DNA from: Candidatus Pacebacteria bacterium CG_4_9_14_0_2_um_filter_40_15
GTDB taxonomy: Bacteria; Patescibacteriota; Microgenomatia; UBA1400; PJMF01
Assembly: GCA_002788675.1 (NCBI GenBank)
Contig: PFRS01000001.1
Coordinates: 106,204-170,203 of the forward strand
Direction: 5' to 3'
DNA: 64,000 nucleotides
In this document: in pieces, positions 1,584 to 56,613 of the stretch
How the letters are laid out: every line of letters begins with the position of its first letter
How positions within the stretch are numbered: the stretch's first letter is position 1
Notes under the pieces: generated by a model
The model's input: the letters and a program-made list of their open reading frames with translations, nothing else
What the model was told of the DNA's origin: nothing
Database searches by the model: none
Translations under genes and position numbers: made by a program

Positions 1584-2411
1584 TTAAGTTCTGGGTCCAG
1601 TTGAATTCTCTGGCTGTGGCATGACGGGAACCACCCAGGTGTTAGCTGGGGGAATTTGAAATTCCCCTGCTCCTGGAGCCGGTGGGGATTGGTAGTACGT
1701 CTGATTTGGGTTGTACTTCGTATAAGGAAGTTGTTCCCCATTATCATTTAACGTACCATGCTGAGCATTCCGCGACCAAAAGCACTTGTAACCTAATGCG
1801 TTTTTGTCTGCAAAGGTTATCAAAGTTTGTGCTTTGTCAGGGTAGAACCTTGCAAAGTCTGTGATAGAGTTCTCAATTAAGTGGGTTGCAATTCCCCGGC
1901 CTTGAAAGGCCGATTCAACTTGCATCCAATGGATAACCGTCTCCTGTCCGTTGACATTCATCAACGCTGACTGAATAAAACCAATCTTCTGTCCGTCGGC
2001 CGTGTAGACCGTACGGGTGATGGTATTATCGGCAGCGTCATGATGGACTGTTGACCGTGCATTCGGCGGATACCCAGGCTTGTTTGAGCATGGGTCATTC
2101 GGATCCTGGTTAGGATCCCCAGTCGTCGTTCCTGCCTGATCGTAGTCAGCAGTCAGTGTTGTAGATTCGCCTTCTGAAATACGCATCACCTGCTCAGAAA
2201 AATCTGCAGGCAAAGGCATTGTAACAAAGGTTGGAAAATACGGAATACTTGCCGGTATCGTGATGTTTGGCATCACGAAACTCGTACTTGGCGGGAGCGC
2301 CAGCGTTCCTGCATCACCCAGAACTGGCATTGAGCTTCCTGTCCCACAGGAAGTCAATATAAATGCAAAAAACGGAATCAAAAATGGCCAAAATGGTCTT
2401 AATACCTTCAT
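1584..2411 (-). CDS. Lipoprotein with a C-terminal GNAT acetyltransferase-like domain
   Basis: The N-terminus carries a signal peptide and a lipobox (ILTSC). The C-terminal half has a QGRGIATHL motif that resembles the GNAT acetyl-CoA binding Q/RxxGxG/A signature. Confidence 0.5.
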   Translation of the reverse strand: MKVLRPFWPFLIPFFAFILTSCGTGSSMPVLGDAGTLALPPSTSFVMPNITIPASIPYFPTFVTMPLPADFSEQVMRISEGESTTLTADYDQAGTTTGDPNQDPNDPCSNKPGYPPNARSTVHHDAADNTITRTVYTADGQKIGFIQSALMNVNGQETVIHWMQVESAFQGRGIATHLIENSITDFARFYPDKAQTLITFADKNALGYKCFWSRNAQHGTLNDNGEQLPYTKYNPNQTYYQSPPAPGAGEFQIPPANTWVVPVMPQPENSTGPRT

Positions 2412-4292: not shown

Positions 4293-4356
4293 CTTATTGG
4301 CCCCTAAAATAGCATCTCTCGAGGAAATTGGTCCTAAATTGCTCCGTAAAAAAGCG

Positions 4357-5433
4357 TTATTTGGGTGAAATTAGAACGGTTTTACCCGTTCCTTCAAGGT
4401 ATATGGGCTGCTCTTCAATTGTAATCGGACTGCCCTTTTTAAAGGTAACCTTCAGTAATAAACCGCGTCTCACGTTCTCTTCAAAGTACTGATCAAACAC
4501 AAAATTTCCTAAAGAATAGTACACAGGTACCCCATTAATACTCTCATGCTGTTGCACTACATGTGGGTGCGAACCAATGATAATATCTGCCCCAGCTGCA
4601 ACAAACTGACCAGCTAATGCCCTGTAGTACTCGCTGGCAATGGGTTGGTACTCAGTACCCCAATGGGTATAGACCACAACAAAATCTGGCTGCAAAGCAG
4701 CTTTTCTTCGAGTAAGTTCAGCAAGTAACTCATCAACGTCACCCCATAGAAACTGATTGTAGTTTACAAACAAGAACTTCATACCATTCTTTTCATATTC
4801 AACAAATGAATCATCCAGCCAAGAATCGCCACCCACACTTCCCCAGTGAGCCAGACCAGCTTGATTAAGTGTAGCTCGCGTCTGAGCCAAACCTTCTGCT
4901 CCAAAATTAAGAATGTGGTTATTTCCAAGATTGAGTAACACAAACCCTAAATCTTTAAGTACAGGTACAACTTCGGGACTAAAGGTAAAAATATAGTTAT
5001 TACTACTACCAACTGCAGAGCCAGAACTGATTGAGTCAAAATCGGTAATGGGACCTTCTAGGTTTGCAACAAAGCCATCAGCTGACTGTGAAAGCGTCTC
5101 AAAGCCCTCAAAAAGTTTGTCATACCCACCCATCACCGCTGCGCGCTGACGAATAAACCTATCAAACTGCAAATCACCACCAAAAACGAGCGTAACTTCT
5201 TGAGACTTAGGAACTTCTTGGGGGGGTACTGCTACAGCAGGTTCAACTTCCTGAAAAATTTCTTCTGGATCAGGTGTGACCAGTTCTTGATTACTTGTGT
5301 ATGCGGAATTAATTGTGAGCGCAATAGCGGTAATGATGACTGCTAGGAGTAGCCATTTTTTAGGTTCGCTAGAAGCTAATTTAGTGTGTAGCATTTCGTG
5401 AACAAGCATCACATATACCAAAAAGAGTGACAT
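4357..5433 (-). CDS. capA: CapA/PGA_cap family metallophosphatase (poly-gamma-glutamate capsule synthesis-like), N-terminally membrane anchored
   Basis: Motifs GGDLQFDR, LGNNH, THWGTEY and GSHPHVVQ are typical of the calcineurin-like CapA family. An alternative start near 5409 would reduce the overlap with zur. Confidence 0.7.
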   Translation of the reverse strand: MSLFLVYVMLVHEMLHTKLASSEPKKWLLLAVIITAIALTINSAYTSNQELVTPDPEEIFQEVEPAVAVPPQEVPKSQEVTLVFGGDLQFDRFIRQRAAVMGGYDKLFEGFETLSQSADGFVANLEGPITDFDSISSGSAVGSSNNYIFTFSPEVVPVLKDLGFVLLNLGNNHILNFGAEGLAQTRATLNQAGLAHWGSVGGDSWLDDSFVEYEKNGMKFLFVNYNQFLWGDVDELLAELTRRKAALQPDFVVVYTHWGTEYQPIASEYYRALAGQFVAAGADIIIGSHPHVVQQHESINGVPVYYSLGNFVFDQYFEENVRRGLLLKVTFKKGSPITIEEQPIYLEGTGKTVLISPK

Positions 5434-5758
5434 GGTGATGCTTAAGTGTATACCCTTCTGGCAGCTTACTTCTGTCTATCATACACTCAAGGTGGTCAAT
5501 TTTTTTACAAGACTCGCAGACAAAATGGTCATGATGTTCATTTTCCAAGCTGCGCAGTTCATAATATACTTTATCGCTACCAAAAGAATGACGGCACACT
5601 TGGTTTTCTGTCAGCATCTTTTCAAGATTTCGATACACGCTGGTTTTATTTACCATTGTACCTTTTTTTGCAAGGAATTCGAGAATTTCTGGAGCAGTAA
5701 GAAAATGTTTCTTCTCTAATAGTTGAATCAATATTTCTCGAAGATTTCTTTTTTTCAT
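5381..5758 (-). CDS. zur: Fur-family metalloregulator, probably Zur
   Basis: A winged-helix N-terminus is followed by HHDHFVCESCKK and CDAC metal-binding motifs. The gene lies directly downstream of znuACB. Confidence 0.75.
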   Translation of the reverse strand: MKKRNLREILIQLLEKKHFLTAPEILEFLAKKGTMVNKTSVYRNLEKMLTENQVCRHSFGSDKVYYELRSLENEHHDHFVCESCKKIDHLECMIDRSKLPEGYTLKHHHVTLFGICDACSRNATH

Positions 5759-6612
5759 AGTAGAACCGCAATCTGCTCTTTCACTTTTTTAAGTACGACA
5801 CTGAGCAAAAATAAAAACCCAGCAAAAACGGCTATCACCGCACCAGTGGGTAAATCGAGTCCAATGGACAAACCAATACCACCCACTACTGAAACTAGCG
5901 CAATGATTGGTGAATAGATAAATAGTTGTTTTATCGACTTGGCATGTAAACTCACTACTAGTGGAGGTATTACTAAAAATGCATTTATAAGCACCACTCC
6001 AACAAGACGTACACCTGAAACCACAGTAAGTGCCAAAATAAAATGATAGATCATTTCATGCAATGGAATGTTAATTCCTAGCAATCGAGCCTGATCTTCA
6101 TCAAGAGAAACCAACAGAAGTTTCTTAGCAATAAATGGCAGCAAGATGCTCACAGATATAAAAAGTACTCCCAAAAAAATAAGATCAGAAGAAGTTACCG
6201 CTAGCAAATTTCCAAACAAAAAACTTAATAAATTAGGCTGATACCCTGGTAACAGTGAAAAAGCGATCACCCCAATACCCATCGAAACTGGCAAAAGCAA
6301 TGCTAAAAGTGAATCAAATGAAAATCCAGTCTGTTTTCTGAACCAAGGTAGAAACAATGAAATAAGTACTGCGTAAATAGCAGCTGAAATAAGTGGGTCA
6401 ATTGCAAAAAAAAGTCCAATGGCCACACCAGCCAATGCAGAATGCGCAACAGCATCACCAAAAAAAGATGCTTTTCTAATCAGCGTAAATACTCCAACTA
6501 TTCCTGCCAAAATTGCCAAAAGCAAACCTGCTATCAGTGCTCTCTGAAAAAAAGTATAAGCTAGGAGCTCAGTAAAATCTTGTAGCATAGTGTATTGTGT
6601 ATCTGTCCACAC
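5755..6612 (-). CDS. znuB: Zn/Mn ABC transporter permease
   Basis: An ABC-3 family polytopic permease positioned between the ATPase gene and zur. Confidence 0.75.
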   Translation of the reverse strand: MWTDTQYTMLQDFTELLAYTFFQRALIAGLLLAILAGIVGVFTLIRKASFFGDAVAHSALAGVAIGLFFAIDPLISAAIYAVLISLFLPWFRKQTGFSFDSLLALLLPVSMGIGVIAFSLLPGYQPNLLSFLFGNLLAVTSSDLIFLGVLFISVSILLPFIAKKLLLVSLDEDQARLLGINIPLHEMIYHFILALTVVSGVRLVGVVLINAFLVIPPLVVSLHAKSIKQLFIYSPIIALVSVVGGIGLSIGLDLPTGAVIAVFAGFLFLLSVVLKKVKEQIAVLL

Positions 6613-6614
6613 AG

Positions 6615-7346
6615 TTACGTGTGATGTGCGTGTCCAAATAATTGTATTCCTTCACCATAGAGTTGCTTAAAAACTTCAGCCGTTAACACTTGTTCCGGTT
6701 TCCCCGCACATACTACGTTTTTTTTGATACAAAAAACAGTATCTGCAAATTGGCGAACCAACGCTATTTCGTGTGAAGCTAAGAGTACTGTTACATTGTC
6801 CTCTTTGGCTAATTTAGTCAGTAGTTCATAAAAAATTCGCTCGCCTTCAACGTCAACTCCTGCTTCAGGTTCATCGAGCATCAGAATTTCTGGTTCATGC
6901 ACCAGAGCGCGGGCCAGTAATAGTCGTTGTACTTGTCCACCAGAAATGTCTGCGATTCGTTCGTTCTTTTTATCAATTAAATCTACCTTTTTAAGAACAC
7001 TTAAAATCATTTTTTCTTTTTCTTTTGAAGAGTGATCACAATTAAGCAATCCAAGTTCTAAAAACTCATGAAGCGTAATGGGTATTGATCGATCAATAGG
7101 ATATCGTTGGGGAACATAACCAATATGACCATGAGTATTCTTCCGATGTTTGCCCACAATACTCACTGTTCCTTCGTACTCAACAAGTCCTAGCAGTGCT
7201 TTAATAACGGTTGACTTTCCTGATCCATTTGGACCGAGCAATACACCAACAGTCCCCTTTTTCATCGAGAAAGAAACATGCTCAATTGCATAGGAATTCT
7301 CGGTTGGATAGCGGACAGAAAGGTTTGTGACTGTTATTGCTGTCAT
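6615..7346 (-). CDS. znuC: Zn/Mn ABC transporter ATP-binding protein
   Basis: Walker A GPNGSGKST, signature LSGGQ and Walker B LLDEP. Confidence 0.8.
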   Translation of the reverse strand: MTAITVTNLSVRYPTENSYAIEHVSFSMKKGTVGVLLGPNGSGKSTVIKALLGLVEYEGTVSIVGKHRKNTHGHIGYVPQRYPIDRSIPITLHEFLELGLLNCDHSSKEKEKMILSVLKKVDLIDKKNERIADISGGQVQRLLLARALVHEPEILMLDEPEAGVDVEGERIFYELLTKLAKEDNVTVLLASHEIALVRQFADTVFCIKKNVVCAGKPEQVLTAEVFKQLYGEGIQLFGHAHHT

Positions 7347-7354
7347 ACTTTTTT

Positions 7355-8287
7355 TTACTTTTCTGAGTTAGAAAATCCTTCAGCTAAGTGCATTGCAAAT
7401 TCCTGGAGCGTGCCAAAGTAATCACTTGATAATGGATTTACATACTCAATTGGTACCTGTAATTCCTGAGCCAATGACTCGGCTGTTCTTGTGGAAAATT
7501 GCTTTTCTAAATAGATTGCAGAAATCTGCTCAGACGCAACCAGCTGCAAACTATCTTTGATTTGAGTAGCAGATGGTTCTTTACCTTCAATTTCAATAAA
7601 GCGTTGGGTCAGGTTAAACTCCTGTGCAAAATAGCCAAAAGCTGGATGGTACACTAAGAAACTTCTTCCCCAATGTTTATCAAGCATTTCATGCAAATCA
7701 GCAGATACTTTTTCAAGTTCTGCAACCACTGTTACGGCATTTTGGACATACCTATCGGTATAATCAGGATCTATCTTCTGTAACGCCATCACAATACTTG
7801 GTAATTGTTGAATCATGAGACGAGGTGAAAGCCATGTGTGAGGATCAGGTTGTTCTTCATCATGATCATCAGTGGCATCATGTTCATCCTCTTCGTCGTG
7901 GTGATGCTCTCCTAATGGCAAAAAGTCTGTTTCTTGTAGTGCTTCATTCAATTTTATAACAACAGTATCTTGACCACTTTCACTTAAAACAGTCTCAATA
8001 TTCTGCTCATACGGTAAATTTCCATTAAGCACAACAAGTTTTGCACTAGATAATCGCTTCATTTCTTGAGGAGAAGGTTCATAGGTTTCTGGGTTATACC
8101 CTTCAGGTACAATACTAAAAACGGTAACATCATCGCCAACAATCCGCTCCACAATATCTTGATACGGTAAAATACTCACCCCTATCTCAAAACGAGCATC
8201 ATTTTTTTGTTGAACAACACCGGGCAGTGAACAACCACCTAGTAAAATGGCTGTTGCAGTTAACAGCAATGACTTAAAAATTTTCAT
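7355..8287 (-). CDS. znuA: Periplasmic metal-binding lipoprotein ZnuA
   Basis: A signal peptide with GGCS and a His/Asp/Glu-rich loop (EHHHDEEDEHDATDDHDEE) characteristic of ZnuA. Confidence 0.75.
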   Translation of the reverse strand: MKIFKSLLLTATAILLGGCSLPGVVQQKNDARFEIGVSILPYQDIVERIVGDDVTVFSIVPEGYNPETYEPSPQEMKRLSSAKLVVLNGNLPYEQNIETVLSESGQDTVVIKLNEALQETDFLPLGEHHHDEEDEHDATDDHDEEQPDPHTWLSPRLMIQQLPSIVMALQKIDPDYTDRYVQNAVTVVAELEKVSADLHEMLDKHWGRSFLVYHPAFGYFAQEFNLTQRFIEIEGKEPSATQIKDSLQLVASEQISAIYLEKQFSTRTAESLAQELQVPIEYVNPLSSDYFGTLQEFAMHLAEGFSNSEK

Positions 8288-37339: not shown

Positions 37340-37906
37340 TTATCCAGTAGGCGTGCTGCTTTTTTTGCGCCGGTCATTGATGAATCGTCTCCCCCAAGGA
37401 CTCAACGCAAAGGATATCGCCATCAAGACCACCAGAGAGCCTATCACAACTCCCAGATGTATGCTCTGCCCTGATTGTTGTGCTGATACTGTTCCCAGTG
37501 AAACAGCAGTTGGCGCACACTGCCACTCACCATTTGAACTGGTAACCTGTTGTGGCAGGTTCTCGATCGGATACGCTGCATCGATAACCCACCCTGAGGT
37601 AACCATATACGGCACGGTAATTGTGATCGGCAATGTGGCCGTGAAATGGGCTGTCGGCCCAGTCCACCGGTCCCAGTTAACAACAACTGTCTGAGTTGTG
37701 CCAGAAAAAGAAATCTCCATCTCCCCAACAGCGTTTTCTGCAATTTGAGGAGCATTCGGCATAACTATTTCAGCCACTAAAGGCGGTTGCCCGTCTGTGT
37801 CACAAATGTGCGACAGCCGAGCCCCAGCCGGTGTGTCAGCGAACACACTTCCTACTGTACTCAATAAAAAAATCAAAATAAACGAAACTCTTACAGCTAC
37901 TTTCAT
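37340..37906 (-). CDS. Secreted/cell-surface hypothetical protein with a C-terminal membrane anchor
   Basis: An N-terminal signal peptide, with a C-terminal hydrophobic segment followed by RRFINDRRKK. Confidence 0.45.
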   Translation of the reverse strand: MKVAVRVSFILIFLLSTVGSVFADTPAGARLSHICDTDGQPPLVAEIVMPNAPQIAENAVGEMEISFSGTTQTVVVNWDRWTGPTAHFTATLPITITVPYMVTSGWVIDAAYPIENLPQQVTSSNGEWQCAPTAVSLGTVSAQQSGQSIHLGVVIGSLVVLMAISFALSPWGRRFINDRRKKSSTPTG

Positions 37907-44758: not shown

Positions 44759-44795
44759 AAAAAGACTTTGGATTAATCCAGAGTCTTTTTTTTCT
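44759..44795. terminator. Bidirectional intrinsic terminator
   Basis: A hairpin agactttggatt/aatccagagtct flanked by aaaaa and tttttttt. Confidence 0.6.
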
Positions 44796-48910: not shown

Positions 48911-49111
48911 TTATTTTAGCTTTTTAGATTGTACGTGTGAAGTGTGCTTACGACACTTACTACAATACTTACTCAGTGGGAAAGTTGTTTCGCCACCTTG
49001 CTTCTTTAGAAGCTCATTATTTTTGTTCATTGAAGTCACATATCCAAAGGTGCTGCATTCGCTACACTTTAATCCGATATGTTGTCGTGGACCTTTTTTC
49101 TTGCTTGCCAT
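48911..49111 (-). CDS. rpmG: 50S ribosomal protein L33
   Basis: Zinc ribbon motifs CSEC...KYCSKCRKHTSH. The likely start is MASKKKG, whereas the ORF track extends to 49180. Confidence 0.7.
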   Translation of the reverse strand: MASKKKGPRQHIGLKCSECSTFGYVTSMNKNNELLKKQGGETTFPLSKYCSKCRKHTSHVQSKKLK

Positions 49112-49185
49112 ACTTACTTTCTTATCTTTTTCCAAGATGCGTATTATATCAAAATTTATAGAGGACGTAAATACGCCCATTCTTG

Positions 49186-49258: not shown

Positions 49259-49426
49259 CATTAGACTTCTTGCGAAATAAGCTTTGTAGCAATTTTGACA
49301 TATATTTGAGTACTTTTGAAGGCACTTACATGCGATAGTAGCCTGTGCTACTTGAGTATGTAAGTAACGCTCAAAAGTGCCAAATAGATGTCAAAGTACT
49401 GCGAATGTTATTTCGCAAAAAGTCTA

Positions 49427-49664: not shown

Positions 49665-49871
49665 ACAAAAAACAGTATTAAAAAACAAATACGCAAAGCG
49701 CAAGGCTTGTAGTTTACTACACTGCCCTCTAAATCTCAATCTAAGAAAACTGCAGAATTCTATTCTACTAGAGTCTCTATCACTCCTTCAAGTGGTACAG
49801 CTCTTCAAATATGAAAATGGGCGACCCTCCAGGCCGCCCATTACTTGTGTTACGTTTTAAATTTCTAACTG

Positions 49872-50672
49872 CTACCAGTCGTTTTCAACATCCCAGAATG
49901 AAACCCTGGCCATGACCCCAAGGGAGTACTGACGTTGGTCAGTCATAAAGAATGAGCCAACTGGATCATTTGGCTCACTATCACCCCATAGGGTTGGTTG
50001 CCGCTTGTAAGCTGCAGCAACAAACCGCAAAAAACCAACCGGGTCTGGGGTGCAAACATCAATATGCTCCACTCCACTCCAAGGAGCCGAAGGATCATAT
50101 TGAACTTCCTGGTAATACACCCAGGGAGCAAACGGGACCGGGACGGGGATGTAGATACGTTCATGATCATCTGCTGGACGCACCAACTGATATGAATCAT
50201 GATACATTGCCAATCGCTTGGCTTCCTTTCGCATCGCTTTCTTGCTGTGAAAACGGCGGCCAATATGGTGCAGCTGGATGTCGTTTCCCTTGAAAGCATA
50301 CAGGCCTATTAGGGCCATCATCAGATCAAATTCCTGGGAAAGTTTGGATACTGTAACAATTTCGTTACCAGAACGAACTCCCCCCTGCCAGCCCAATGAC
50401 CTTTTGTAGGTCGCAACTGGCGTTGTGCAAATCCCATATGGATCACCGCGGGAAACAAGTTCCCCATACTTCGCCCAGGCGACTCCCCCTGCCTCAGAGG
50501 CTGGGTCTGGGTAGGATGTTCCCAACCAGGCGCCGAACGCGCCTGATGTCTGGGTATCATAATTTGCGATACCCATTACCGCATAAAACGGTTGCCGTCT
50601 CGCAACGGCAATTTGATCCATTAGTCTTACAGCACCAACAGTCTGTGGTGGTGACATGTTAACATCTATCAT
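49872..50672 (-). CDS. Hypothetical protein encoded by a GC-rich (about 55%) segment, likely horizontally acquired
   Basis: A 266 aa ORF with a GGAGG ribosome binding site. Local GC is about 15 percentage points above the surrounding DNA, and many overlapping six-frame ORFs appear here as a consequence. Confidence 0.55.
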   Translation of the reverse strand: MIDVNMSPPQTVGAVRLMDQIAVARRQPFYAVMGIANYDTQTSGAFGAWLGTSYPDPASEAGGVAWAKYGELVSRGDPYGICTTPVATYKRSLGWQGGVRSGNEIVTVSKLSQEFDLMMALIGLYAFKGNDIQLHHIGRRFHSKKAMRKEAKRLAMYHDSYQLVRPADDHERIYIPVPVPFAPWVYYQEVQYDPSAPWSGVEHIDVCTPDPVGFLRFVAAAYKRQPTLWGDSEPNDPVGSFFMTDQRQYSLGVMARVSFWDVENDW

Positions 50673-50844
50673 TTCTGATCAACCTCCTCGGCCACTGGCC
50701 GAATAAAAAAAGTTAAAACGTTATTAAAGAAGAAGTGCGGGTTTAGCGCGCAAAAAATGCACTAAAATCACACAGTAGCAGGCATTTTACCACAAAAATA
50801 TAAATATGAGACGCTAATATAGGCAAAAATAAAAAATAGAAAGT

Positions 50845-51004
50845 TTCAAAAAACAAAAACAGCCCTGCGTGAGAGGCTTCCGATTCCCGCAGGAACCATG
50901 TGGGTAGAATGCTCATTACTCCTCGGAGCAACAAGACGCTTCATAAACCCGTTATCAAAGTGTTCAGGAAAACTCTTCGACCTCTCACGCAGGGCTGTCT
51001 TTTA
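50845..51004. repeat. Long inverted-repeat element
   Basis: A 22 bp inverted repeat, aaaaacagccctgcgtgagagg / cctctcacgcagggctgtctttt, encloses a roughly 115 nt GC-rich loop. Confidence 0.6.
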
Positions 51005-51070
51005 ATGTTCAGTTGTAGATTCAGTATACAACGATTCTTTTCAACTCAAAAGATGACGTAAAACGTCAAA

Positions 51071-56439: not shown

Positions 56440-56613
56440 GAAACATTCTCTTTTTGCTCAGCCTGATGCTAGTAGATGAGAAAAGTAGTTGCGTTGAGCG
56501 ATATATACAACAATATATGTTCTGCTCAGCCTGACGATAGTAGATGAGAAGAACATATATTGTTGTATATTATTAGTTACTTATGCCCCGCTTGACGGGA
56601 TTAAGGAGATATA
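56440..56613 (+). promoter_or_regulatory. Structured rplK-rplA spacer: a duplicated 28 nt motif and a 20 bp perfect inverted repeat, a candidate r-protein autoregulatory or attenuator leader
   Basis: tgctcagcctgatgctagtagatgagaa appears at 56455-56482 and again at 56523-56550. The second copy forms the loop of the stem atatacaacaatatatgttc/gaacatatattgttgtatat (56503-56522 with 56551-56570). Upstream is a small hairpin with a T-run at 56434-56457. Downstream is a cccg-cttga-cggg hairpin and the SD sequence AAGGAG. Confidence 0.45.

Follow-up and report, generated by a model that had tools for sequence, protein, structure and literature searches.

A structured small RNA gene downstream of galU and an independent accessory gene in a Patescibacteria lineage

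We analysed a 64-kb stretch of the genome of Candidatus Pacebacteria bacterium CG_4_9_14_0_2_um_filter_40_15 (contig PFRS01000001.1; hereafter the window), in which a long inverted repeat and a GC-rich open reading frame (ORF) of 266 amino acids (aa) lie side by side between a tRNA cluster and galU. The arms of the repeat pair as P1, the closing helix of a structured small RNA; the gene for this RNA is single-copy, vertically inherited and independent of the ORF. We hold with good confidence to the two-part reading of the locus as a whole, an RNA gene beside an independent accessory gene.

An inverted repeat that closes a conserved small RNA

The locus comprises, in this order, the tRNA-Thr(ggt)/tRNA-Tyr/tRNA-Thr(tgt)/L33 block, the ORF, the RNA element and galU; galU, the RNA, the ORF and the tRNAs are all on the minus strand. 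A preliminary description of this DNA had correctly placed the ORF and the repeat between the tRNA-Thr/Tyr/Thr-L33 block and galU. It had also announced a perfect 22-bp repeat with a 115-nt loop, about 170 bp upstream of the ORF. The repeat is real and does lie upstream, but its dimensions differ: the arms (50855-50876 and 50981-51002) are 22 nt long and 95% complementary, the perfect part is 18 bp, the arms are separated by 104 nt and the ORF starts 183 nt away.

The minus strand of the element folds with an energy of -76.7 kcal/mol (z -7.85), compared to -58.7 kcal/mol for the plus strand. The element was followed in other genomes (loci coded with L and a number). On contigs with ORF homologues, it again lay between galU and the ORF and showed compensatory changes, and an exact-pattern scan of GTDB genomes gave two further copies (L006 and L008), each directly after galU. 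A covariance model (CM R1), built here and then run on galU neighbourhoods fetched from progressively more distant relatives, detected the RNA immediately after galU in each of L019, L024, L027, L032 and L034 (E 1e-11 to 1e-23), whose GalU proteins are 90, 87, 80, 78 and 77% identical to that of the window. The same model scored 162 bits on the minus strand of the window and 44 bits on the plus strand. Altogether, the RNA was found directly downstream of galU in 11 of the 11 relatives examined, at a distance of 40-135 nt. The core is about 150 nt long, or about 170 nt if counted from the putative start site.

Among the compared genomes, galU is saturated at synonymous sites (synonymous divergence dS > 1.5). 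These are therefore old relatives, and neutral sequence should have been scrambled between them. Indeed, the flanks of the RNA could not be aligned among homologues. The RNA itself is 91% identical within the close clade and, in an alignment of 11 sequences fitted to model R1, 95.6% of the cells are paired, compared to 45-49% when the 3' partners were slid by 1-3 columns. Compensatory changes affect 31 of the 55 base pairs, and none of 500 shuffles reached the observed values. P1 is exactly 23 bp in length, without insertion or deletion, and 15 of its pairs covary; in P3 (helices 3-6) 11 of 17 pairs show compensatory changes. An alignment that was not fitted to the model (MAFFT and RNAalifold) recovered P1 and P3 unchanged, with 31 compensatory pairs. 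Pairing is maintained in part by G-U pairs, which work only on the minus strand. The flanking stem of hairpin P2 varies among the 11 homologues, but its loop region has a UUUCCU(G/C) motif in every one of them. The strong covariation and the fixed locus across synonymously saturated genomes make it very likely that the RNA is functional.

No homologue of the ORF was present in the fetched galU flanks of L006, L019, L024, L027, L032 and L034, all of which carry the RNA. Since these six relatives have the RNA after galU and no ORF homologue, the RNA is independent of the ORF, and the earlier view of repeat and ORF as one foreign unit is not supported.

The GalU relatives carry the name 'Patescibacteria group bacterium'. 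Two of the records, L006 (CAZKVV010000001.1) and L008 (JACKFX010000006.1), are titled 'Pseudomonadales bacterium'. These titles are probably taxonomic mislabels, given the Patescibacteria GalU relatives and the origin of L008, which belongs to the HK-STAS-PATE series of Patescibacteria metagenome-assembled genomes from activated sludge (PMC12239599).

The features of the locus are listed in Table 1.

Table 1. Features of the galU-tRNA region in the window
Feature	Position	Strand	Basis
Structured small RNA, core of 150 nt	50854-51003	-	Fold, CM R1, covariation
P1, closing helix, 23 bp (RNA nt 2-24 with nt 127-149)	50855-50877 and 50980-51002	-	Corresponds to the repeat arms
P2, hairpin (RNA nt 26-47); loop with conserved UUUCCU(G/C); alternative to Px	50957-50978	-	Fold, alignments
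P3, long hairpin, ~20 bp (RNA nt 54-102); invariant GGG/CCC base, conserved internal loops, C(CGNG)G apex	50902-50950	-	
P4, hairpin (RNA nt 106-123), GGUUCC-UNCG-GGAAUC; 3' strand can pair with the P2 loop as Px	50881-50898	-	
Px, long-range helix, 6 bp (RNA nt 34-39 with nt 115-120)	50965-50970 and 50884-50889	-	Non-fitted alignment
TATACT, -10-like box ~20 nt upstream of P1	51023-51028	-	Read from sequence
U-rich tract UUUUUGUUUUUUG ending and following P1; intrinsic-terminator-like in the window's clade	50843-50859	-	
Terminator-like hairpin between the galU stop, which it closely follows, and the -10-like box of the RNA	51054-51068	-	Terminator scan
Accessory gene, 266 aa, ATG start; predicted GlcG/DUF336-like N-terminal and VOC-like C-terminal domains	49872-50672	-	
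Promoter-like site (50797-50826), conserved 5' leader and GGAGG (50683-50687) of the ORF	50673-50826	-	
Terminator-like hairpin after the ORF, 12-bp stem and T-rich tail	49816-49842	-	
Promoter-like site TTGAGA-17-TAAACT of the tRNA-Thr/Tyr/Thr operon; bounds the variable slot downstream	49711-49739	-	Promoter scan

Copy number and search for known families

The RNA element is single-copy in the window, as judged by a CM R1 search and by a search for the arms allowing 3 mismatches. The 17-nt core of the arm occurs at only 2 sites in 64 kb, the arms themselves, with 0.03 matches expected by chance; the other copies of the repeat that the preliminary description had suggested looking for were thus not found. 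No flanking direct repeats or target-site duplication were observed at the element beyond A-rich low-complexity sequence. BLAST of the RNA against phages and plasmids gave zero matches, a scan of viral sequences was empty and a pattern scan of metagenomes returned false positives only, inside a coding region.

None of the 4227 models of Rfam 15 (including 6S, SRP, Y RNA/YrlA, riboswitches and ribozymes) was found at the locus, either in the window or in five divergent homologues. The searches covered the window in full, the surroundings of the element alone, a 241-nt query run with lax filters, and the five homologous loci. The sole Rfam overlap at the locus was a 9-bit match to the RsaJ terminator stem. 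The RNA is therefore a candidate new family absent from Rfam 15, so far restricted to one Patescibacteria lineage. Retron non-coding RNA, Y RNA, SRP RNA and T-box were also considered and dropped: there is no neighbouring reverse transcriptase, no Rfam match, and no signature motifs were seen.

Two alternative pairings at the centre of the RNA

The centre of the RNA, between P1 and P3, can be drawn in two ways. The alignment not fitted to R1 proposed helix Px, in which the conserved UUCCUG pairs with CGGGAA in place of P2 and P4. Px is paired at 90.9%, with 3 of its 6 pairs compensatory; on the same alignment P2 and P4 are paired at 82%, with 5 of 15 pairs compensatory. The support for the two arrangements is thus about equal. 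In the window and its six closest homologues, the fold loses only 2-7 kcal/mol of stability when Px is forced, and the minimum-energy folds of L024 and L027 include Px without constraint.

With P2 and P4, the RNA is a four-way junction (cloverleaf), which is the predicted ground state in the clade of the window. With Px, it would instead be a rod composed of P1, a small internal loop, Px, a bubble of about 14 + 15 nt, and P3. Invariant G-C pairs flank the bubble of this rod, and P4 corresponds to the 3' strand of the bubble together with the 3' strand of the adjacent helix.

Transcription signals of the RNA

A -10-like box (TATACT, TAAACT, TATAGT or TACTAT) is located 20-50 nt upstream of P1 in all homologues. 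In L034, a strong terminator follows galU and a -10-like box then precedes the RNA. The RNA would start from a promoter of its own at such a box and, in the clade of the window, P1 and the U-run would end the transcript. The U-run is also found directly after P1 in L027; it is absent in L024, L032 and L034, where the base of P1 covaries. One observation weighs against a promoter dedicated to the RNA: the promoter scan found no canonical -35/-10 pair for it. Because a canonically spaced -35 box was not found, we regard the promoter as putative. Even so, these signals suggest that the RNA is likely transcribed independently of galU.

In L024 only, a second copy of the P1 5'-strand sequence (GCCGGGCGTGAAGGGC) occurs about 25 nt after the RNA (~5155-5180), and it could compete for the P1 3' strand.

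Function of the RNA and alternative explanations

The element is most likely an independently transcribed protein-binding RNA, which would act in trans as a stable housekeeping RNA.

The conserved pyrimidine loop suggests another trans-acting role. The UUUCCU(G/C) motif, kept in all homologues despite the varying stem, is complementary to Shine-Dalgarno sequences of the GAGGAAA type, and a base-pairing small RNA exposing this anti-Shine-Dalgarno-like loop (UUUCCUC/G) might occlude ribosome-binding sites. However, the motif has an intramolecular partner, GGGAA in Px, with compensatory changes, so that its conservation can be explained without an mRNA target. Moreover, the long and rigid P1 and P3 are unnecessary for seed pairing. 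We consider this role unlikely.

The constant position after galU, within 40-135 nt, raises the question of whether the element is a mere intrinsic terminator or a 3' untranslated region (3'-UTR) element of this gene. In the clade of the window, the GC-rich P1 at the galU end is followed by UUUUUGUUUUUUG, and its 5' AAAAGA forms pairs with the U-run in the manner of bidirectional terminators. Yet a terminator hairpin has a loop of 3-8 nt followed by a U-run; here the 'loop' is 104 nt of conserved, covarying structure, superfluous for termination, in which P3 covaries and the internal loops and UUUCCU are conserved. The terminator scan detected only a 5-bp sub-stem. In addition, the U-run is missing after P1 in L024, L032 and L034, and galU is followed by a separate terminator-like hairpin in the window and, in L034, by a strong terminator with a -10-like box after it. 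Such a role in galU expression is quite improbable.

We also examined whether the RNA could control the ORF or the tRNA operon in cis, as a leader or riboswitch. It precedes the ORF or tRNA-Thr and shares their strand, the mutually exclusive pairings Px and P2/P4 are switch-like, and the downstream copy of the P1 5' strand in L024 is a possible competitor for the P1 3' strand. Nevertheless, the downstream gene varies: some relatives have a member of the ORF family, L034 has an unrelated 372-aa gene, and in others tRNA-Thr comes next. The RNA and the ORF of the window are separated by a U-run, a separate promoter-like site and a conserved leader, and no riboswitch family was matched. A cis-acting role is thus very unlikely.

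Finally, a mobile element similar to miniature inverted-repeat transposable elements (MITEs) or other small palindromic repeats, or a single acquired island of repeat and ORF, as put forward in the preliminary description, is hardly credible: the element does have terminal inverted repeats around a short non-coding core, an adjoining tRNA cluster, a GC-rich neighbouring ORF and a slot that varies among relatives, but the arms covary as RNA pairs on one strand, G-U pairs included, the element is single-copy and, instead of being present or absent at the site, syntenic after galU in each of the 11 relatives, whether these have the ORF or not, and there was no target-site duplication, transposase, integrase or phage or plasmid match.

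An old accessory gene in a variable slot

The ORF has its own GGAGG, as previously described, 10 nt before the ATG. It would be self-contained, with promoter-like, leader, ribosome-binding and terminator-like elements of its own (Table 1), in a slot between the RNA and the tRNA operon. The 5' leader (50688-50775, minus strand) is conserved in the clade of the window and forms a hairpin with some covariation. After this hairpin comes an invariant ACUUCUUC, complementary to the Shine-Dalgarno region GAGGAGGU, which is abutted by a small CGGC...GCCG hairpin. The leader could be a translational control element; the anti-Shine-Dalgarno pairing is invariant, so that covariation neither supports nor refutes it.

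The ORF had been reported at about 55% GC against 40% elsewhere. It is indeed the GC maximum of the window, at a lower value: 0.503 against a mean of 0.406 (801-nt stretches, standard deviation 0.033), a value reached by 0.16% of the stretches. In GC at third codon positions (GC3, 0.474) it ranks first among 51 long ORFs (mean 0.336, standard deviation 0.052). Part of the excess comes from amino-acid composition, as judged by GC at second positions (0.446 compared to 0.342 for galU). Two other ORFs, 37343-37906 and 1587-2411 (both minus strand), are nearly as GC-rich (GC 0.496 and 0.479; GC3 0.463 and 0.458, respectively). In the members of the window's clade the GC content of the ORF is 0.51-0.53. 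Family members on L017 and L018, two unrelated contigs, likewise exceed their surroundings in GC, and because of this GC-richness looks like a trait of the family. The excess is weaker for the L008 homologue (GC 0.449 versus 0.404 for the locus), whose GC3 of 0.341 is near that of galU (0.322).

A profile of the ORF family run over the fetched loci found homologues only in the clade of the window (L001-L005), in L008 and on L017 and L018. The ORF occupies the same slot in L001, L003 and L004 (61-67% identity) and in L008 (39%), and identity is about 35% for the nearest homologue outside the clade. In a neighbour-joining tree the same-slot homologues group together, with cluster P0025 next to L008.

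The content of the slot differs among the relatives without the ORF. In L006, L024 and L027, tRNA-Thr(ggt) follows the RNA after 35-182 nt, with no called gene between them; in L006 the TTGAGA...TAAACT motif of the tRNA operon is also found before tRNA-Thr. An unrelated orphan gene of 372 aa (4342-5460) fills the slot in L034, orphan ORFs lie between the tRNAs in L032 (4259-4594 and 4857-5315), and L019 has about 700 nt in the slot and an IS200-type Y1 transposase (7289-7720, Pfam E 9e-31) beyond the tRNAs. The region from the RNA to the tRNAs is a local hot spot of gene turnover.

Horizontal acquisition of the ORF had also been suggested. The GC and GC3 maxima, the signals of its own and the patchy presence are consistent with it, and the two outcomes named beforehand as contrary to a foreign origin, a uniform GC profile and a conserved core gene, were not observed. 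Deviant composition and patchy distribution are both features of an acquired islet. However, the arrival was not recent, since same-slot homologues are found in genomes with saturated synonymous sites. In the window, no mobility genes (integrase, transposase) or flanking repeats resembling attachment (att) sites were found around the ORF, and BLAST of the ORF against phages and plasmids gave zero matches. These comparisons point to an old, dispensable, lineage-restricted and patchy accessory gene rather than a recent insertion; its history would be one of a single gain with several losses, or of repeated gains.

Between the window and L001, GalU is 98% identical and the ORF product 66-67% (non-synonymous divergence dN 0.014 versus 0.26). 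We considered fast evolution of the ORF or xenologous replacement, and found both unnecessary: dS of galU is saturated, galU is strongly constrained and the same-slot homologues cluster in the neighbour-joining tree.

Predicted product of the ORF

The absence of a recognisable family, noted earlier, holds at the sequence level: searches of Pfam, NCBIfam, PHROGs, PADLOC and PDB sequences with the ORF were empty. No Pfam model, including those of the VOC/Glyoxalase type and DUF336, matched the ORF or 88 family members at E up to 5. A word-indexed search found only five homologous proteins. An exhaustive profile search of 1.84 billion representatives extended the family to 112 clusters, all of about 260 aa, one of which is from a WWE3/Katanobacteria genome. 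A PDB profile search match to reprolysin was insignificant (E 0.02) and was set aside.

An AlphaFold2 model from an 88-sequence alignment reached a predicted local distance difference test (pLDDT) score of 94.9 and replaced a 5-sequence model (pLDDT 68). In this model, the N-terminal half has a GlcG-like alpha/beta fold. The C-terminal half is predicted to be VOC (glyoxalase/epimerase)-like: the similarity of fold is clear, with one full beta-alpha-beta-beta-beta module predicted and a partial second. No full-length structural match to the ORF product was found among PDB or BFVD structures. As modelled, the family is a rare, unannotated combination of two known folds.

Eight residues, H135, H136, G138, R172, E189, H203, D205 and R256, are nearly invariant, all in the VOC-like half. 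H135, H136, E189, H203 and D205 are placed on predicted strands of this half, and these conserved His/Glu/Asp residues suggest a candidate metal site. The best reading of the product is a putative metal-dependent small-molecule enzyme or binding protein, in which a GlcG/DUF336-like ligand-binding domain would be combined with a VOC-fold domain; both the metal site and the activity are inferred.

Other observations in the window and its relatives

The spacer between tRNA-Tyr and tRNA-Thr(tgt) of the window carries a near-perfect hairpin of 167 nt (49260-49426, minus strand; -68.2 kcal/mol, z -10.4). The same spacer is only 18-37 nt long in relatives. This hairpin looks like a window-specific palindromic insertion, more MITE-like than the element next to galU; no second copy was found in a window-wide inverted-repeat scan. 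The only other long inverted repeats of the window are 56503-56570 (26 nt, 96% complementary, 16-nt loop) and 44759-44790 (a 22-nt palindrome). Short palindromic hairpin insertions of differing sequence were also seen between the -10-like box and P1 in L001 (~2850-2870), L003 (~950-1000) and L008 (~6055-6078), suggesting that small palindromic insertions recur in this lineage.

The L33 (rpmG) ORF of the window (48911-49180, minus strand) is 89 aa long from the first ATG, compared to 67-69 aa in relatives, and its start is probably internal.

Significance and comparison with known systems

Patescibacteria have very small genomes and not much has been published on their non-coding RNAs; for the RNA described here, absent from Rfam 15, a covariance model (R1) is now available. 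If it were of the 6S type or otherwise protein-sequestering, it would fill a gap in the control of transcription or translation in reduced symbionts. Our search of the literature on 6S RNA or other non-coding RNAs in Patescibacteria, also called the candidate phyla radiation (CPR), found nothing relevant. The ORF family, predicted to be well folded and lacking a sequence-family annotation, is worth registering. More generally, when a long inverted repeat encloses a structured 'loop' near tRNA genes, the possibility of an RNA gene should be tested before a mobile element is invoked.

With regard to known protein families, the N-terminal half of the ORF product resembles the small-molecule or haem-binding proteins of the DUF336/GlcG/HbpS/PduO-C/EfgA group in predicted fold, and unlike these it gives no sequence match. 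The C-terminal half resembles in the same way the VOC superfamily (methylmalonyl-CoA epimerase, glyoxalase I, extradiol dioxygenases, HPPD/HMS). It differs from its members in the lack of a VOC match in Pfam at the sequence level and in a second module that looks incomplete.

Among RNAs, the closest comparison is with 6S RNA (SsrS; RF00013 and related families). Both are stand-alone genes of 150-200 nt. If Px forms, the RNA would also share with 6S a closing helix, a central bubble of about 14 + 15 nt and a terminal hairpin. In E. coli-type 6S RNA, a release hairpin forms once synthesis of the product RNA unwinds the downstream helix (PMC8876501), and P4 has the topology of this hairpin. Three features set the RNA apart from 6S RNA: the predicted cloverleaf ground state in the clade of the window, the perfect 23-bp P1, which has none of the bulges of 6S closing stems, and the Rfam 6S models, which gave no match in the window or in five homologues even at E up to 10. 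Among specific functions for the RNA, that of a 6S-like RNA polymerase decoy ranks first by analogy, as a guess that we put forward tentatively. More doubtful is the broader proposal of a new housekeeping RNA class of Patescibacteria; in its most specific form, a minimal 6S-type decoy of RNA polymerase, too diverged for the Rfam 6S models, would toggle between the rod (P1-Px-bubble-P3) and the cloverleaf. The link to 6S RNA would thus be one of resemblance, in gene length, in the architecture of the rod and in the topology of P4, and not of membership.

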